Part shown: positions 1-40,969 of the stretch, one piece after another
How the letters are laid out: the number at the start of each line of letters is the position of its first letter
Position numbering within the stretch: the stretch's first letter is position 1
Assembly (NCBI GenBank): GCA_001820305.1
Contig: MHPC01000002.1
Coordinates: forward strand, 1-40,969
From: Candidatus Staskawiczbacteria bacterium RIFCSPLOWO2_01_FULL_43_17b
GTDB lineage: Bacteria > Patescibacteriota > Minisyncoccia > Minisyncoccales > Staskawiczbacteraceae
Direction of reading: 5' to 3'
DNA: 40,969 nt
Made by a program: the position numbers and the translations under genes
The notes under the pieces: generated by a model
Seen by the model: only the letters and a program-made list of their open reading frames with translations
Told to the model about the DNA's origin: nothing
Databases searched by the model: none

Positions 1-26
1 TATTAAGATAATATTATTGAATCTGG

Positions 27-156
27 AAGGGGGTCGGGGAAACACTCGGTTTCCCCGTGTAGGAAATTATTCAAAACCGAGGGTTTTGAAAGAGCGAGCC
101 GGTAGCCCCGCAAAGCGGAGGCGCCCGCCGTAAGGCGGGAAGAGGCGAGCGACTAA
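27..156 (+). other. GC-rich structured element, copy 1 of a family (starts AAGGGGGTCGGGGAAA; GGGGAAA/TTTCCCC stem, GNRA-type hairpins CCCGCC-GTAA-GGCGGG)
   Basis: GC-rich island in AT-rich spacer upstream of ftsB-like gene; shares 16-mer and several blocks (CCCCGTG.AGGAAA; AAACCG.GGGTTT..AA.GAGCGA) with 26512-26720. Confidence 0.4.
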
Positions 157-174
157 CTCTCTATTACCTGTATT

Positions 175-579
175 ATGCCAGATTTTGATAAAAAAAGAAA
201 TAAAAATCTGTATCGGCATTTTTTGATTAAGTTGGGCGCGGTGATCATTGCCGTATTGGTTTTACTGGTTGTTGTGGCAGACGTGAAGGTGTACCAGCGC
301 AGGCGGGAATTGAGTATGCAGGTGGAAAGCTTGCAAAAAAAAATAGAAGAATTAAAAAATAAAAATGGCGGCTTGAAAGAAGGGCTGGCAAAAGCTGATG
401 ACGACGCTTACATAGAAAAAATAGCGCGGGAAGAACTGGATTTGCAAAAGCCCGGGGAAAAAGTGATTTCGTTTGTGGTGGGGGATCAGCTGGTGCAAGA
501 TGACGCCATGCAAAAAAACGGTTTTACAACATGGATGGCCAGCACGTGGAATTCGTTTGTGGATTTGTTTAAAAAATAA
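175..579 (+). CDS. septum formation initiator (FtsB/DivIC-like), N-terminal TM helix + coiled coil
   Basis: 134 aa; TM segment LIKLGAVIIAVLVLLVVV followed by coiled coil ELSMQVESLQKKIEELKNKN; position next to cell-division/cell-wall genes. Confidence 0.6.
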   Translation: MPDFDKKRNKNLYRHFLIKLGAVIIAVLVLLVVVADVKVYQRRRELSMQVESLQKKIEELKNKNGGLKEGLAKADDDAYIEKIAREELDLQKPGEKVISFVVGDQLVQDDAMQKNGFTTWMASTWNSFVDLFKK

Positions 580-18885: not shown

Positions 18886-19896
18886 ATGATTATGAAAACT
18901 GCGTTTTTTGAAGTGAAAGAGTGGGAAAAGGAATATTTACAAAATCATTTCAGCCCGGCTGAGGCGGTTTTTTTTGCCGAAAAACTTTCGGTTGAAAATG
19001 CGGCTTTGGCCAAAGATTGCCGGATTGTTTCCGTGTTTGTGGATTCCGCCGTTGATGCCCATGTGTTGGCGGCGCTGGCGGATCTGAAAATGGTGGCGGT
19101 GCGGGCCACCGGTTATGACAATGTTGACGTGGCTTATTGTAAAGAAAAGGGGATTACGGTTTGTAATGTGCCGTTTTACGGCGAAAACACGGTAGCGGAA
19201 CACACCTTTGGTTTGATTTTGGCCCTTTCGCGCAAAATGTACCAATCGGTTGATAAGGTGAAAGAAGAGGGTTTTGCGGTTGCCATTGACGAATTCCGCG
19301 GGTTTGACCTGAAAGGAAAAGTCTTGGGCGTGGTGGGCATGGGCCACATTGGCCAGCACGTGGCGCGCATGGCGCAGGGTTTTGAAATGAAGGTGGTGGC
19401 CTTTGATGCCCATGAAGATAAAAAATTGGCCAAAAAATTGGGGTTTGTTTATGTGAGCCTGGAAGAATTATTAAAGTCTGCGGACATTATCACTTTGCAT
19501 GTACCCTATAATGAACACACACGCCACTTAATCAATTCGCAAAATATCCACATTATTAAAAAGGGGGCGTATATCATCAACACCGCCCGCGGGGGCATTA
19601 TTGAAACCGCGGCGTTGGTTGAGGCGTTGGCGGAAGGAATTATTGTCGGCGCGGGGCTGGATGTGTTGGAAGAAGAAGCGTTTATCAAAGAAGAAGCCCA
19701 CTTACTTTCAAAAAATTATTCCCAAAAGAGCGATATGAAAACCATGCTCCAAAACCACATTTTAATGGACCGCAAAAATGTAATTATTACCCCGCACAAT
19801 GCTTTTAATTCAACGGAAGCCCTGGAAAGGATACTTGAGACTACCGTGGAGAATGTTAAATCATTCATAGAAGGAAAATCTGTTAATGTGGTATGA
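18886..19896 (+). CDS. D-isomer-specific 2-hydroxyacid dehydrogenase (NAD-binding)
   Basis: GVVGMGHIGQHVARMAQGFEMKVVAFD Rossmann motif; catalytic R/E/H context (ITLHVPYNEHTRHL, NTARGGII). Confidence 0.8.
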   Translation: MIMKTAFFEVKEWEKEYLQNHFSPAEAVFFAEKLSVENAALAKDCRIVSVFVDSAVDAHVLAALADLKMVAVRATGYDNVDVAYCKEKGITVCNVPFYGENTVAEHTFGLILALSRKMYQSVDKVKEEGFAVAIDEFRGFDLKGKVLGVVGMGHIGQHVARMAQGFEMKVVAFDAHEDKKLAKKLGFVYVSLEELLKSADIITLHVPYNEHTRHLINSQNIHIIKKGAYIINTARGGIIETAALVEALAEGIIVGAGLDVLEEEAFIKEEAHLLSKNYSQKSDMKTMLQNHILMDRKNVIITPHNAFNSTEALERILETTVENVKSFIEGKSVNVV

Positions 19897-19912
19897 GAAT
19901 GTAAAATGCAAA

Positions 19913-19998
19913 TATCAAAATGGAAAATGACAGTTCAAAATTCAAAATGATTCGGTTGTAAAGTTTTACATTTTACATTGTCACTTTCCATTTTGATT
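19913..19998 (+). terminator. long imperfect palindrome (ATCAAAATGGAAAATGACAG...TTGTCACTTTCCATTTTGAT) followed by T-run; probable terminator
   Basis: about 20-bp arms, then TTTTTAAAC; between dehydrogenase stop and trxB start. Confidence 0.4.
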
Positions 19999-20017: not shown

Positions 20018-20956
20018 ATGTACGATCTCATCATCATTGGCGCGGGGCCGGCCGGAGTGGCAGCCGGGATTTATGCAGTGCGTCAGCAGCTAAGCATTTT
20101 GGTTATTTCAAAAGATATTGGCGGACAAGTGGCAAAAAAAGCCGTGGATATTGAAAATTATCCGGGATTTGAAAAAATTTCCGGGCCGGATTTGGTTGAA
20201 CTATATAAAAAGCAGATTAAAGCCAACGAGTTGGAGGTTATTACAAATGAAGAGGTAGTCAGTGTTGAAGTAAAAGGTGAAAGAGAAAAGGTGAAAGGAA
20301 ACTTTTTGGTAAAAACAAAATCAGGGAAAATGTATGAATCAATAGCGGTTATCAATACTTCCGGGGCGGAATCAAAATTAATTAATGTGCCGGGCGAGGA
20401 GGAATTTTCCGGAAAGGGCGTAAGTTATTGTTCATTGTGCGACGGGCCGGTATTTAAAAATAAAATTGTGGCCGTGGTGGGCGGGGGTAATAACGGTTTT
20501 GAGTCGGCGTTATTTTTATCAAACTATGTGCCTAAAATTTATATTTTAGAGTATAACGATAAAGTAAACGCCGATGCTGAAAACCAAGAATTAGTTGCTA
20601 AAAATCCGAATATTGAAATTATTACTAATGCACAAGTGGCCAGAATTGAAGGGAAAGTGTTTGTAAATGCCATTGTTTATAAAGATAGAGTTTCGGGTGA
20701 GGAAAAAAAACTGAATGTGGCAGGCGTGTTTGTAGAAATTGGTTACAGCCCGGCTACTTCATTTTTGAACGGTTTGGTTGAGCTGAACGAAAAACAGGAA
20801 GTGATATTTAATCCGGAAACGTTAGAAACAAAAACCCCCGGCCTTTTTTCAGCAGGGGATTGCAACGTCAGCCGGTACAAACAAATTGTCATGGCCTCCG
20901 GCGAAGGCGCCAAAGCGGCACTTTCGGCTTACAACTATATCAAGAAAAATAAATAA
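20018..20956 (+). CDS. trxB: thioredoxin-disulfide reductase
   Basis: FAD motif IIIGAGPAGVAAGIYA, redox CSLCDG, NADPH motif VVGGGNNGFESA, C-terminal GDCNVSRYKQIV. Confidence 0.85.
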   Translation: MYDLIIIGAGPAGVAAGIYAVRQQLSILVISKDIGGQVAKKAVDIENYPGFEKISGPDLVELYKKQIKANELEVITNEEVVSVEVKGEREKVKGNFLVKTKSGKMYESIAVINTSGAESKLINVPGEEEFSGKGVSYCSLCDGPVFKNKIVAVVGGGNNGFESALFLSNYVPKIYILEYNDKVNADAENQELVAKNPNIEIITNAQVARIEGKVFVNAIVYKDRVSGEEKKLNVAGVFVEIGYSPATSFLNGLVELNEKQEVIFNPETLETKTPGLFSAGDCNVSRYKQIVMASGEGAKAALSAYNYIKKNK

Positions 20957-25493: not shown

Positions 25494-26510
25494 ATGGCAA
25501 AAGTGGCAATCAATGGTTTTGGTCGCATTGGGCGGCAGGTGTTTAAGCGGATATTGCAAATGTATCCTGATTTGGACGTGGTGGCTATTAACGATTTAAC
25601 AGACACCAAAACCCTGGCGCATTTATTACAATATGATTCCAATTACGGCATGTTTGGCAAAGAAGTCATCCATAAAGAGCGCGCCATTTCCATTAACGGT
25701 AAAGAATATGCCGTGCTGGCCGAAAAGGATCCGGCCAAATTGCCCTGGAAAAAATTGGGCGTTGATATTGTGCTAGAATGCACTGGCTTTTTTACAGACA
25801 AAGAATCTGCCGGTCTGCACCTGGCTGCCGGCGCCAAAAAAGTGATTATTTCCGCTCCCTGCAAATCAAAAGACGTACCCAGTTTTGTGTTGGGCGTAAA
25901 CGCTGAAAAATATGACGGCAGTGTAGATGTGATGGACATGGGCAGCTGCACCACCAATTGCTTGGCTACGGTTGCCAAGGTTTTGCAAGATAATTTTGGA
26001 ATTGAAAAGGGGTTTATGACCACCGTTCACAGCTACACCAATGATCAGAGCATTTTGGATCTTCCTCACAAAGATTTACGGCGTGCCCGGGCAGCAGCGG
26101 TTAATATTATTCCCACCAGTACCGGGGCCGCCAAGGCGATTGGAAAGGTAATCCCTCAACTTGAAGGAAAATTAGACGGCATTGCCATCCGGGTGCCAAC
26201 ACCGGTGGTTTCAGTTTTAGACTTGATTGTCAATGTGGACAGAGCCACCACCAAAGAAGAGGTGAATGAAGCATTCCAGTTGGCCGCCGCCAAAGACACG
26301 TTTAAAGGAATTTTGGGGGTTGAGGAACAGCCGTTGGTTTCCAGTGATTTTAAGGGTGATTCGCGTTCGTCTATTGTTGACCTTCAAGAAACCATGGTAA
26401 GCGGTAATTTGGTCAAAGTCCTGGCTTGGTATGATAACGAGTGGGGATTTAGCTGTAGACTCGCCGAATTCACAGAATTCGTAGCGAGCCAGCTAAATAT
26501 GCATTCGTAA
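25494..26510 (+). CDS. gap: glyceraldehyde-3-phosphate dehydrogenase
   Basis: INGFGRIGR NAD motif, active-site SCTTNCLA. Confidence 0.9.
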   Translation: MAKVAINGFGRIGRQVFKRILQMYPDLDVVAINDLTDTKTLAHLLQYDSNYGMFGKEVIHKERAISINGKEYAVLAEKDPAKLPWKKLGVDIVLECTGFFTDKESAGLHLAAGAKKVIISAPCKSKDVPSFVLGVNAEKYDGSVDVMDMGSCTTNCLATVAKVLQDNFGIEKGFMTTVHSYTNDQSILDLPHKDLRRARAAAVNIIPTSTGAAKAIGKVIPQLEGKLDGIAIRVPTPVVSVLDLIVNVDRATTKEEVNEAFQLAAAKDTFKGILGVEEQPLVSSDFKGDSRSSIVDLQETMVSGNLVKVLAWYDNEWGFSCRLAEFTEFVASQLNMHS

Positions 26511-26511
26511 A

Positions 26512-26720
26512 AAGGGGGTCGGGGAAATTGGTAAGGGAGCTTTTTACGCGACACTTAGTTCTGCTCAGACAGAACCCCGTGAAGGAAAACAGTGCCGTCA
26601 ATACGCACACGCGTGTGCGTATTGACGGACACGTTAGAAACCGTGGGTTTCTAAGGAGCGAACCCGAAGGGGGAGCGACAGAGTGGGCTTCTCTTGTCGA
26701 TTGGCGGAGTTTACGGATTT
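26512..26720 (+). other. GC-rich structured element copy 2 (starts AAGGGGGTCGGGGAAA; contains perfect 34-nt palindrome CCGTCAATACGCACACGCGTGTGCGTATTGACGG at 26595-26628)
   Basis: shares 16-mer and blocks CCCCGTGAAGGAAA, GAAACCGTGGGTTTCTAAGGAGCGAACC, GGGGAGCGACAGAG with copy at 27-156. Confidence 0.4.
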
Positions 26721-26733
26721 GATAGCAAAAAAG

Positions 26734-26811
26734 TTATCCCGATCAATTTAGCAAAGCTAAATTGATACGGGATCCCGTATCAAAATTTATACTAAATTTT
26801 TATCGGGATAG
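26734..26811. mobile_element. MITE-like hairpin element copy 2 (TTATCCCGAT-caATTTAGCAAAGCTAAAT-TGATACGGGATCCCGTATCA-...-ATCGGGATAG), no cargo
   Basis: same palindromes and terminal inverted repeats as 13728-13877. Confidence 0.55.
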
Positions 26812-36684: not shown

Positions 36685-36954
36685 ATGAAAGCAGACATCC
36701 ACCCAATTTATTTTCCAAAAGCAGGTGTTAAGTGCGCCTGCGGTAATTCGTTTACGGTTGGATCAACCAAAGAATTTATTGAAACTGAAATTTGCGCCCA
36801 GTGCCACCCTTTTTATACTAAGAAGGAAAAGGTGATGGATACCTTGGGCAGGGTACAGAAATTCAAAGACCGGGCCGCCAAGAAAATTGATAAGCCAAAG
36901 AAAGTAAAAAAGGTTAGGGAAGAAAAAGATAATAAGGCGACACTAATCAACTAA
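36685..36954 (+). CDS. rpmE: 50S ribosomal protein L31
   Basis: [10 protein letters not shown]...CACGNSF...CAQCHPFYT zinc-ribbon type L31. Confidence 0.9.
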
Positions 36955-38818: not shown

Positions 38819-39276
38819 GCCATCTTGAAATGAGGGAGGTAAGTAGCAAGTGAAAACCAAGCACTCATTTTTGTACATTAAGCCAGGGGGTGGATTGCGT
38901 GTCGTTGGCACGAGCGGCGGCACCTTTTTCGGTTGCGCCTAGGGTCAGGGTAACGGGAAAAGAACCAGTAATAATCGTGACTGGACAGTTCACCTCTTGT
39001 AATTTTCAGGGAAAAAGGAATGGGCTGGCCAGCCTATTGGCGCTCCGGGTTCAGTTTCGTTAACTGACGACGAGGTCTTCCACGCGGCCCATTTCCTCTT
39101 TTTTCAATGTGTCCAAAAATGAGTGCTCGGTAAAGTAACTTGTTTAAAATTAGTTTTTGAAAGTTGTTTCGAATAAGCTTAATACGTGCTTAACGTATAT
39201 ATTATTTGAGAGTTTGATCCTAGCTCAGGGTGAACGCTGGAAATGTGGATACCGGCATGCAAGTCAAGGGGCCCAG

Positions 39277-39543
39277 GGATGTAGACTCTGAACGCGAATC
39301 TAAATTGAGAAGCGAAAAAATGTGATAATTTCAATGTTTCTTGCGACGAAATGTAGTGACTACTACATTGAGGAGTAAAAACGAAGAAATTAGCCATTTT
39401 TTCGCTTCCCTTCGGGCTTTCATATTTTGATTATCTTCTGCGTCTTCGGAGCTTAACGATGCCTACAGCATCGCTTCGCTCCTCAGTTCTTGAATATAAT
39501 CAAAATATGGAAGCTCAATTGATTCTGTTCAGAGTCTACATCC
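39277..39543 (+). other. about 267-nt intervening sequence in 16S helix 6 closed by perfect 17-bp stem GGATGTAGACTCTGAAC/GTTCAGAGTCTACATCC
   Basis: E. coli has about 35 nt here; AT-rich interior with several CGCTTC-containing hairpins; no ORF. Confidence 0.6.
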
Positions 39544-39933
39544 TTAAGGCACCGGCGAACGGCTTAGTAACACGTGGATACATACCGCAAAGTGGAGCAC
39601 AGCTCGTCGAAAGACGGGGTAATTCTCCATAATCCCGCAAGGGTAAACACGCAAGTGGCTTTGTGAATGGTCCGCGGTCTATCAGCTAGTTGGTGAGGTA
39701 ATGGCTCACCAAGGCTATGACGGATAGGGGGCGTGAGAGCGCGACCCCCAAGAATGGCACTGCGACACGGGCCATACTCCTACGGGAGGCTGCAGTCGAG
39801 AATCTTCCACAATGGACGAAAGTCTGATGGAGCGACATTTCGTGATGGATGAAGCCCTTCGGGGTGTAAACATCTTTTATGCGGGAAAAAATTATTGATT
39901 GTACCGCATGAATAAGGGGGTACTAATTCTGTG

Positions 39934-40815
39934 ACCCGCAAGGGTGGTGCAGAATATTCGCAGTAATGCGGATAAAGCAAACTTGGCTCATATGCTGGAA
40001 CACCTTGTGTGTCCGCTAACTCCTTTCATTTTTGAAAGGCGCGCACAAGACAATCAGCAGGGAAGCTGATATATGTTATAATAAACATATATTTAGCCCC
40101 TCAGAGACTGAATCCGAAAGGATGAAATGGTGGCATATAACCCACCATTATACGCCGAGCTCCTGGTTTTTAATCAGGATGATGGGATAGTCCAGTGGCA
40201 CATTATCGTATATGGAAACAAAGGCGCGAGCAATATTAATTGGATTAATTCTTGGAGATGGATATTTAACAAAGCCGTTTGGTAGCAGTACCAAATCTAT
40301 GCTGGATATTAAATATCATGAGAAATCTTTAGAGTATCTTCAATGGATGCATAAAGAGTTACAAGAATTACAACTTTCTGAAATCAAAAAGAAAAAAGGG
40401 GCTTCCCAATATCGGTTTTATACTAAAACCAGAGATGATATTGGCCGGCTTCATGAGATATTTTATCCTGGCGGAGTCAAACATATTCCAAAAGGTATTA
40501 CTAAATATCTTAAAGATCCGTTAACTTTGGCCGTGTGGTATCAAGATGACGGAAAGCTAGATTTCAGGAGCAAATATCATTCCAATTCATTATTTGCGAC
40601 ATATTGTTTTCCCTACGATGAATGTGAATTATTAGCTAATGCATTGCGTGTAAATTTTGACTTAGATGTGCGAGTCTGCAAATGTCAAATGCGTGGAAAA
40701 ATGTATTATTCTTTATATGTGACCTCAAAAAGCATGGATTTATTCATGCAGATTATTGAGCCACATATACAGAAATGCTTTTACTATAAATTAGTAAAGT
40801 ATCGCAAATAACTAG
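39934..40815 (+). mobile_element. intron/intervening sequence in 16S (within GTG|CCAGCAG, E. coli about 515) encoding a LAGLIDADG homing endonuclease
   Basis: conserved 16S sequence resumes at GCCAGCAGTAGCGGTAATAC (40815); exact boundaries ambiguous by 1 nt because of G at both junctions. Confidence 0.7.
40212..40811 (+). CDS. LAGLIDADG homing endonuclease (double-motif)
   Basis: LIGLILGDGYL and LAVWYQDDGKL motifs; 199 aa; stop 4 nt before 3' exon. Confidence 0.85.
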   Translation: METKARAILIGLILGDGYLTKPFGSSTKSMLDIKYHEKSLEYLQWMHKELQELQLSEIKKKKGASQYRFYTKTRDDIGRLHEIFYPGGVKHIPKGITKYLKDPLTLAVWYQDDGKLDFRSKYHSNSLFATYCFPYDECELLANALRVNFDLDVRVCKCQMRGKMYYSLYVTSKSMDLFMQIIEPHIQKCFYYKLVKYRK

Positions 40816-40969
40816 CCAGCAGTAGCGGTAATACAGAACCCCCGAGCGTTACCCGGATTTATTGGGCGTAAAGGGTTGGTAGGTGGCGTAGTAAGTTCAA
40901 GATTAAACCTCATCGGCTTAACCTTTGAGCTGTTTTGAATACTGCTACACTAAGAGGGCGTTAGAGGCA

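Follow-up and report, generated by a model that had tools for sequence, protein, structure and literature searches.

What kind of element places two similar GC-rich blocks in one bacterial contig, the first directly before the start codon of a DivIC/FtsB-like gene and the second directly after gap, the gene for glyceraldehyde-3-phosphate dehydrogenase (GAPDH)? The contig is MHPC01000002.1 of Candidatus Staskawiczbacteria bacterium RIFCSPLOWO2_01_FULL_43_17b (assembly GCA_001820305.1), and its positions 1 to 40,969, the whole stretch analyzed, are referred to below as the window. Both blocks, designated copy 1 and copy 2, are probably members of a new family of insertion elements that are small and non-autonomous, occur in Patescibacteria (for the most part Parcubacteria/Paceibacteria), and have a structured RNA as their conserved cargo. 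The RNA structure and the insertion-with-duplication anatomy are well supported, and the mechanism of mobilization and any host function are treated as hypotheses.

Two copies in the window

The original prediction placed GC-rich blocks at 27-156 and 26512-26720, and reading of the sequence confirmed both, with cores at 27-153 and 26512-26679. The common 16-mer AAGGGGGTCGGGGAAA occurs exactly twice in the window, at 27 and 26512, and further conserved blocks follow in the same order in both copies as predicted, namely the 27-nt degenerate block AAACCGNGGGTTTNNAANGAGCGANCC, then CCCCGTGNAGGAAA and GNGAGCGAC. The degenerate block is present only at 74 and 26638 and had 0 matches in 100 shuffles, and both copies outfold every shuffle (z = -2.8 and -3.9); these shuffles rule out chance similarity of two blocks. 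A filter-free search with the family's own covariance model returned no third copy in the window.

The predicted starts stand, but the ends lie too far downstream, as the conserved cores stop at 153 and 26679: positions 154-174 are a linker leading to the ATG at 175, outside the copy 1 core, and 26681-26720 are displaced coding sequence of the gap C-terminus, outside the RNA core of copy 2. An extra 34-nt palindrome reported for copy 2 is present at 26601-26634, but it is an optional hairpin in the joining segment J2/3, one of three variable sites, and it is because extra hairpins occur at these sites that the copies differ between their common blocks. The hairpin element described 3′ of copy 2 likewise exists, but as a separate 74-nt palindromic insertion (26736-26809) outside the family.

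A conserved RNA fold

A covariance model built from 20 minimal copies recovered 103 matches in 0.78 Mb. The core of ~85 nt comprises three hairpins around purine-rich junctions, with the consensus RRRRgGGGUC / P2 (8 bp) / GuRnagGAaanYR / P3 / R / P4. The P3 helix has 9 bp (UUnRaAACC-GNG-GGUUuYnAA), and in P4 (GAGCGAgC-loop-GcGAGCGAc) two tandem G.A/A.G pairs alternate with G-C pairs, capped in the shortest copies by a CUUG tetraloop. Extra hairpins are tolerated inside P2, in J2/3, and in the P4 loop.

Covariation, proposed as a check in the original prediction, is strong across the family. In the 103-sequence alignment, whose fitting to the model favors the pairing score, paired cells amount to 95.3% and double-sided changes occur at 19 of 21 pairs; P2 and P3 nonetheless show many independent pair types, none of 500 shuffles reached any of the measures, and slid partners paired at only 39-64%. 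Within P2 and P3, G.U/U.G outnumber A.C/C.A combinations by 33 to 11, so the molecule that folds is RNA with the sequence as given here, in the same sense as the neighboring genes. The model alignment of copy 2 was rejected because P2 was wrongly put on the palindrome, and this copy was therefore read from its sequence blocks.

Distribution and genomic contexts

Further copies proved numerous in species genomes and in metagenomes. An exact-pattern scan over one genome per species matched 90 stretches of species genomes, nearly all from Patescibacteria/Parcubacteria and including Staskawicz-, Nealson-, and Magasanikbacteria, Paceibacteria, and others, with up to five matched contigs per metagenome-assembled genome (MAG) and three copies in the fetched parts of a complete 640-kb genome. 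The same pattern was found in at least 119 metagenome contigs and had 0 matches in viral contigs; 16 viral matches to the bare 16-mer, none with the other blocks, were treated as chance, and one phage group has only the first hairpin in common with the element. Cores that are nearly identical to each other stand beside unrelated genes in separate species (L048 matches copy 1 closely, as L030 does copy 2), and a minimal 85-nt copy lies between a tRNA and the 16S promoter in one gap-relative locus whose gap site is empty. In the literature searched, no description of the family was found, and it is previously undescribed.

Several contigs end in the element or a few bases from it (L007, DATDTC010000036.1; metagenome L141, L170, L180, L187, and L204), as would be expected if the repeat breaks assemblies. 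The enrichment at contig ends is mild (~13 of 58 full-length contigs end ≤250 nt from the element).

Copies are co-oriented with host genes and stand 5′ of start codons, after open reading frames (ORFs), as does copy 2, or beside tRNA genes. In the start-codon subtype, of which copy 1 is the Staskawiczbacteria variant, which numbers 23 genome copies and, in metagenomes, 31 of 65, the ATG follows 17-22 nt past the core, with the conserved linker UAACUUnGUAUUACCACU between core and ATG and the conserved 5′ flank (A)CAUCCCAUAUCGGAGAG. The genes downstream include rpsG, K, L, M, and N; rplF, J, N, and W; nusA and nusG; ftsA, ftsQ, and ftsX; and divIC, holA, ybeY, rpiB, and others. The linker sequence UACCACUAUG is nearly confined to the element (24 of 30 occurrences), and in L094 a linker of the start-codon type abuts the first base, and thus the mature 5′ end, of tRNA-Tyr. 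The tRNA-adjacent copies number 22, of which 21 are co-oriented with the tRNA, often 60-70 nt 3′ of it and past a terminator-like hairpin.

A plain DNA-level repeat, similar to repetitive extragenic palindromes (REP) or miniature inverted-repeat transposable elements (MITE), would have hairpins that are by-products of palindromic DNA with no RNA function. It would account for a multi-copy, intergenic sequence at which some contigs end, and a true small palindromic insertion does adjoin copy 2, but this explanation is scarcely credible: compensatory changes keep three specific helices across a phylum-level clade, the G.U bias is confined to one strand, orientation to genes and tRNAs is fixed (21 of 22 tRNA neighbors), and the element has no terminal inverted repeats of its own.

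The original prediction left a choice between a riboswitch or leader class, a small noncoding RNA family, and another structured repeat, of which the last is nearest. It also proposed checking whether the position upstream of ftsB and downstream of gap is conserved in related genomes; the orthologous sites in gap and DivIC relatives are empty. A leader specific to either gene is not supported, given the diversity of downstream genes and the many copies after ORFs or beside tRNAs, and the coherent gene sets and conserved positions of riboswitches and cis-regulatory leaders are likewise replaced here by diverse genes and empty orthologous sites. A more general version, in which a riboswitch-like or protein-binding leader senses a global signal (e.g., a nucleotide or alarmone) and controls growth genes with P1 and the start-codon region as its expression platform, is improbable. 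The anatomy is aptamer-like, in that several helices meet at a junction whose bases are conserved, the closing helix varies, and peripheral hairpins are optional, and the ribosomal protein, nus, fts, divIC, holA, and ybeY genes named above are growth-related. However, many copies have no downstream ORF, being located after genes, facing convergent genes (copy 2), or past tRNA terminators; positions differ in relatives; pairing of P1 with the start codon is weak and inconsistent; and no common metabolite logic unites the gene set.

Several features sought in the flanks were rejected. Strong P1 helices in the start-codon subtype gave way to weak, inconsistent duplexes, and a promoter fixed at the 5′ end of the element to -10-like boxes in only about half of the start-codon copies. 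The joining segment J1/2 (AAGGGGGU) as a Shine-Dalgarno (SD) mimic or split ribosome-binding site was dismissed in view of a relative's 16S rRNA lacking the anti-SD and genes lacking SD motifs, and pairing of the linker with the 16S 3′ tail amounts to 4 bp within helix 45. A boxA-like antitermination signal (CUUUG) in the linker is a resemblance that leaves the fixed AUG distance unexplained. No tRNA was called for an opposite-strand or intron-containing tRNA behind the GGGAnUCGAACCC flanks, which are sense or antisense copies of the 3′ end of the neighboring tRNA, and a seemingly conserved GCACAA after some copies is merely the end of the repeated tRNA.

Closing helix, gene-end repeats, and guide

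Outside the start-codon subtype, the two flanks of the core pair with each other as a closing helix, P1, though they are unrelated between copies. Cognate flank duplexes average -13.7 kcal/mol vs -9.5 kcal/mol for non-cognate ones (p = 3e-6). The 3′ flank of many copies is a repeat of host sequence 40-120 nt upstream, which gives the layout gene...h-A-(stop, spacer/terminator)-guide-core-h′-A′, where A′ is a second copy of the gene end. The host gene is intact, and A′ is identical to A in recent cases and shows mainly synonymous divergence in old ones.

Beside tRNAs, the 3′ flank is the neighboring tRNA from the T-loop to its end, with identities of 18/18 (L097), 20/22 (L032), 18/19 (L060), 22/24 (L056), and 12/12 (L028). 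In copies after ORFs, the 3′ flank is the last 6-30 codons and the stop of the upstream gene, and such C-terminal repeats involve a PolX-like protein (four lineages), L11 (four), S9 (two), UvrA, a glycoside-hydrolase-like protein, and the GAPDH of the window. At the DNA level, flank repeats in 22 of 80 copies score above the 99th percentile of non-cognate scores, with more at the protein level, and perfect or near-perfect repeats reach 26/26 (L085), 47/48 (L082), and 73/73 (L130). The pattern recurs in 9 of 60 copies of an independent metagenome set.

Just 5′ of the core lies a short guide that is antisense to the first 7-18 nt of the repeat. In 12 of 14 cases, the guide pairs more strongly with the upstream, functional copy than with its downstream counterpart (means of -19.7 and -14.2 kcal/mol, respectively), and the same preference was seen in 6 of 7 cases from the second, metagenomic set. 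These host-sequence repeats and the antisense guide, general across the family, were overlooked in the original prediction, as was the duplicated GAPDH C-terminus that makes up the 3′ part of its copy 2.

In L130 (positions 1170-1450 of metagenome contig Ga0265297_10001125), a perfect 73-nt direct repeat flanks the element on both sides, and the guide, CCAGTACCACCATT, is the exact antisense of the first 14 nt of the repeat. The first repeat takes a TAA stop from the insert, and the second retains the original ATGA stop/start overlap with the next gene; L130 is apparently a very recent insertion. In L098 (4129-4374, minus strand), a tRNA split by a group I intron in its anticodon loop lies just upstream of the element, and the 3′ end of this intron-bearing tRNA is repeated in the 3′ flank.

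A stand-alone family of trans-acting small RNA genes, with the copies in cis being incidental, would fit some tRNA-adjacent copies that stand between two terminator-like hairpins (L035, L075, and L083). Such a family is very unlikely, since most copies are missing both a dedicated promoter and a dedicated terminator, fusion to a start codon or to the end of an ORF is frequent, and each genome holds several diverged copies with a different P1 each, unlike a housekeeping small RNA.

Copy 2 and the end of gap

Copy 2 shows this layout, splitting gap (Table 1). Repeat A, the in-frame coding end of gap, is followed one base later by the core, and beyond the core lies A′, a displaced and untranslated copy of the gap C-terminus that begins GAGTGGG-CTTC TCT TGT CGA TTG GCG GAG TTT ACG GAT TTG ATA GCA AAA AAG. 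The first codons of A and A′ differ only synonymously, and their protein similarity has a BLOSUM score of 69, compared with a 99th percentile of 36 for non-cognate pairs; homologous GAPDH proteins end in EFIAKKL and a stop. Within A′, TTTACGGAT (26709-17) is complementary to 26503-11, and CTTCTCTT (26688-95) can pair with AAGGGGG.

A′ is nearer than A to the gap ends of relatives (e.g., 37/43 vs 27/38 for L121). The gap site is empty in L025, L027, L028, L121, and L123, and in the last of these (CAYIJR01), which has the same neighbors (gap, a small reverse ORF, and PPDK), the spacer measures 43 nt vs 357 nt in the window. The closeness of A′ to relatives and the short L123 spacer therefore indicate that ~240 nt, comprising A and the core, were inserted at codon ~316 of gap; as the sequences read, the displaced original gap end is what was left behind as A′.

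A′ is itself interrupted by the 74-nt palindromic insertion, which is flanked by a 4-bp direct repeat, AGTT (26732-35 and 26810-13). The sequence at this site is uninterrupted in L123, and the insertion has the appearance of a classical MITE with no relation to the family of copies 1 and 2.

Copy 1 and the DivIC/FtsB-like gene

Copy 1 represents the start-codon subtype, and its guide touches the gene downstream: AATCTGG (20-26) is complementary to CCAGATT (178-184), codons 2-4 of the DivIC-like gene. The CTCTC of its linker can pair with the GGGGG of J1/2. The site is empty in L124 and L125, whose DivIC proteins are 47-56% identical and where AT-rich sequence leads straight into the ATG, and the spacer at the DivIC locus of another relative, P0125, is only 103 nt. 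Without positions 19-174, the window would read ...GATAATATTATT directly followed by ATGCCAGATTTT, which places a -10-like box six bases 5′ of the ATG; the DivIC-like gene was therefore probably leaderless originally. A consensus scan found no full promoter before copy 1.

Table 1. Positions of the parts of both copies and of adjoining features in the window
Feature	Positions	Strand	Basis or remark
Copy 1 guide, 5′ strand of closing helix P1 (GAATCTGG)	19..26	+	sequence read
Copy 1 core	27..153	+	model R1, 86.2 bits, E = 7e-19; fold
Copy 1 J1/2 (AAGGGGGTC)	27-35	+	fold
Copy 1 P2; J2/3	36-42/50-56; 57-69	+	fold
Copy 1 P3, GAG loop	70-78/82-90	+	fold
Copy 1 P4, 5′ strand GAGCGAGCC; 3′ strand GGCGAGCGAC	92-100; 144-153	+	fold
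Copy 1 optional hairpins, two	101-143	+	fold
Copy 1 3′ linker TAACTCTCTATTACCTGTATT, variant of family module UAACUUnGUAUUACCACU	154..174	+	runs to start codon
DivIC/FtsB-like gene (PF04977)	175..579	+	start codon abuts copy 1
Repeat A, in-frame gap C-terminal coding end (EWGFSCRLAEFTEFVASQLNMHS, then stop)	26439..26510	+	
Last bases of A (ATTCGTAAA), 5′ strand of copy 2 outer helix	26503-26511	+	
Copy 2 core, one base after A	26512..26679	+	blocks read directly
Copy 2 J1/2; J2/3	26512-26520; from 26579	+	
Copy 2 P2, GGGG/CCCC, 47-nt insert within	26521-24/26575-78	+	
Copy 2 optional 17-bp hairpin (the palindrome)	26592-26632	+	
Copy 2 P3, GTG loop	26634-42/26646-54	+	
Copy 2 P4	26656-64/26670-79	+	
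Repeat A′, displaced, untranslated gap C-terminus copy	26681..26735	+	after 1-nt deletion, frame encodes FSCRLAEFTDLIAKK
74-nt palindromic insertion inside A′	26736..26809	.	terminal inverted repeat ATCCCGAT/ATCGGGAT

How the element may move

A single crossover between a host gene and a small unit consisting of host segment, guide, and core would yield the repeat-guide-core-repeat layout. Within such a unit, the guide and the host segment would form P1 around the core, and the crossover point would fall exactly at the base of P1, the boundary between core and h. The RNA fold would thus define and probably mediate mobilization, whether as a cleaving and ligating RNA, as a guide for a trans-acting recombinase, or only as the mark of a processing site. 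A crossover at the base of P1, guides that keep perfect complementarity beside decayed A′ copies, and conservation of the core throughout the phylum together suggest that the fold takes part in formation or insertion of the unit, and the perfect guides beside decayed copies imply purifying selection. Once in place, an element with a gene-end copy on each side would have homology arms and could pass from lineage to lineage by ordinary recombination, which would explain why A and A′ resemble orthologous coding sequences from different lineages. Members of the start-codon subtype, such as copy 1, would have entered a gene, probably a leaderless one, at its 5′ end, where the element could be tolerated or removed at the RNA level.

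More tentatively, the element might be mobile through RNA without any protein. An ~85-nt ribozyme or guide RNA would recognize a transcribed target by its guide and cut or join exactly at the boundary between core and target, via a small circular form of host segment, guide, and core similar to a viroid or retrozyme, and it would either carry a spare gene end or excise from a 5′ end to restore a leaderless mRNA. Spare gene end or self-excision would make insertion into essential genes harmless, and, if true, bacteria would have a novel class of ribozyme and a programmable kind of insertion not seen before.

Several points weigh against an insertion element. No recombinase, reverse transcriptase, or other mobilizing gene was found, although no systematic search was made, and no excised or circular form was seen. 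Copy 2 itself is without a guide antisense to the very start of its own repeat. The start-codon subtype, nearly half of the copies, has conserved flanks (CAUCCCAUAUCGG... and ...UAACUUnGUAUUACCACU-AUG), no clear repeat, and only a weak P1, and genes of similar kinds (nusG, ftsX, and ribosomal protein genes) follow it from one lineage to another, which makes it look more like a host leader. The A′ copies retain reading frames and could be in use, and strong conservation of the core over a phylum-level clade is unusual for a selfish repeat. The start-codon subtype may be a domesticated or specialized branch, acting as a 5′ leader or processing signal in genomes that lack SD sequences and are prone to leaderless genes.

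Translation signals and a possible processing role

That last possibility touches on how these bacteria start translation. In the relative L028, the 3′ end of 16S rRNA (19883-19935) reads GGAUCAUUUUUUU, and the anti-SD CCUCC is missing; SD-like motifs 5′ of ORFs are no more frequent than background in the window and in all loci that bear the element (10-12% in the latter). A -10-like hexamer (TATAAT, TACAAT, or GATAAT) stands 5-8 nt 5′ of the ATG in many genes of the window, as at 36685, 38214, 34043, and 27278, and the position of these boxes suggests widespread leaderless mRNAs in the window.

The element could accordingly be read as a cis-acting processing or stability element of the host, a kind of punctuation. 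A putative cut at its 3′ edge, due to the RNA or to an RNase of the host, would set cistrons, tRNAs, and rRNA apart and leave 5′-terminal AUGs, and hence leaderless mRNAs, in a lineage that no longer uses SD initiation. This reading is possible but doubtful as the whole explanation; being compatible with a mobile origin as a domesticated element, it serves as the main rival or as a complement. The fixed distance of 17-22 nt from core to start and the almost element-specific linker UACCACUAUG speak for it, as do the abutment on tRNA-Tyr in L094, the copies between ribosomal protein cistrons and within tRNA arrays, the background level of SD-like motifs, and the many leaderless-looking genes of the window. 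The L028 16S without an anti-SD is also in keeping, a loss known in one subgroup of Parcubacteria (PMC9297842). Processing alone leaves unexplained the gene-end duplications, the antisense guide, and the absence of the element at orthologous sites of relatives, and other internal genes in the same genomes are translated without any element.

Other features of the window and its relatives

Exact protein matches to the window come from groundwater and soil metagenome contigs and from the MAG GCA_035291005.1. An Rfam 15 scan of the whole window at the gathering threshold returned tRNAs and 16S only. The 16S match (39202-40969) spans model positions 1-659 within 1768 nt, so an insertion of ~1.1 kb is present, holding a 199-aa ORF (40212-40811), and the 16S of L028 (18537-19093) has a group I intron inside. 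Two tRNAs were called by ARAGORN 3′ of the L028 16S (20307-20378 and 20697-20770), one with an undetermined two-base anticodon and one with UUA ("Stop"). An 835-aa ORF of the window (6635-9142) has a match to the shoulder domain of the major vault protein (PF11978) and faint Vault_3 matches, and it adjoins ftsX across the lineage.

Significance

If the interpretation as an insertion element is correct, hundreds of copies of a hitherto unrecognized structured RNA are present in a large bacterial branch that is still poorly understood, and this RNA inserts harmlessly in essential genes, tRNA genes, and start codons by pairing with its target and bringing a duplicated gene end. A new class would join the short list of widespread bacterial structured RNAs, and its members may include a small ribozyme or guide RNA of a new type. 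Odd "pseudo-C-termini", tRNA-end fragments, and some assembly breaks would be explained, and the family would bear on gene expression in lineages without SD initiation. A small RNA that chooses its targets by a short guide would also be of practical interest.

Comparison with known systems

Both copies were compared with Rfam 15, which the original prediction had proposed as a check, and no family was assigned at gathering scores and only weak chance matches at E ≤ 10; among another 18 element-bearing loci, the only matches were to group I introns, tRNA, and rRNA outside the element. The known classes of self-cleaving ribozyme (hammerhead, hairpin, twister, twister-sister, pistol, hatchet, and HDV-like) had 0 matches in either copy at E ≤ 10, and GUAUUACC, which we take to resemble loop B of the hairpin ribozyme, occupies a different place in the fold. 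A group I intron was rejected, since Intron_gpI does not match the element though the model finds true introns nearby, and the core is only ~85 nt. No ARAGORN or tRNA-model call fell on any element on either strand, and where a flank resembles a tRNA, it duplicates the 3′ end of the tRNA next to it. As for bridge or seek RNAs of the IS110 type, no transposase-sized ORF adjoins the copies examined, with the family search of the neighbors not run.

Diversity-generating retroelements confine differences between their template and variable repeats (TR/VR) to adenines of the template and have a reverse transcriptase gene nearby; here, substitutions between A and A′ involve every type of base and fall mainly on synonymous third positions, and the targets are housekeeping genes and tRNAs. 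Riboswitch aptamers and ribosomal protein leaders share with the element a helix junction, conserved joining bases, a variable closing helix, and a frequent position 5′ of the starts of translation genes, but the gene set here is incoherent, many copies are not 5′ of any gene, and positions vary between relatives.

Correia elements, Rickettsia palindromic elements, and ERIC/BOX sequences, none of which extends beyond a single genus or species, are bounded by terminal inverted repeats that belong to the element and by short duplications of the target. The element is similarly small, non-autonomous, multi-copy, and harmless in or near genes, where it forms RNA hairpins in host transcripts. It differs in its covarying multi-helix fold, its phylum-level spread, and its host-derived flanks of 12-73 nt, which are different at every site; these flanks, together with the lack of inverted ends of its own, led to rejection of a MITE or REP-type assignment.

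Mobile ribozymes offer a likeness of logic rather than sequence. Group I and II introns pair with their site through an internal guide or exon-binding sequence (EBS), and the 5′ HDV-like ribozyme of the R2 retrotransposon takes host 28S sequence into its P1. In the present family, too, a segment borne by the element pairs with the host at the insertion boundary, and a conserved core with optional peripheral hairpins is transcribed together with the gene of the host. Group I introns are known to abound in Patescibacteria (PMC13011429). Unlike these ribozymes, the element has a core of ~85 nt, matches no group I or self-cleaving family in Rfam, and carries a copy of the downstream "exon".

The nearest parallel in anatomy is provided by integrative elements at the 3′ ends of tRNA and housekeeping genes, which duplicate their att site through crossovers in the tRNA T-loop or, for integrative and conjugative elements, in rpsI or fda. 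Their hallmark is that the insert lies between direct repeats of the target 3′ end and leaves the target gene whole, and it is found here as well: in tRNAs the repeated part begins at the T-loop and extends to the 3′ end, the replacement end keeps the gene intact, and the two copies have diverged as if from different lineages. No integrase was found inside the element, whose inserts of ~150-300 bp hold no ORF, and a trans-acting enzyme was not searched for. In contrast to integrative elements, this unit is 100 times smaller, has no integrase inside or adjoining, and uses dozens of targets, each copy bearing its own target-specific antisense guide and a cargo that is a conserved structured RNA.

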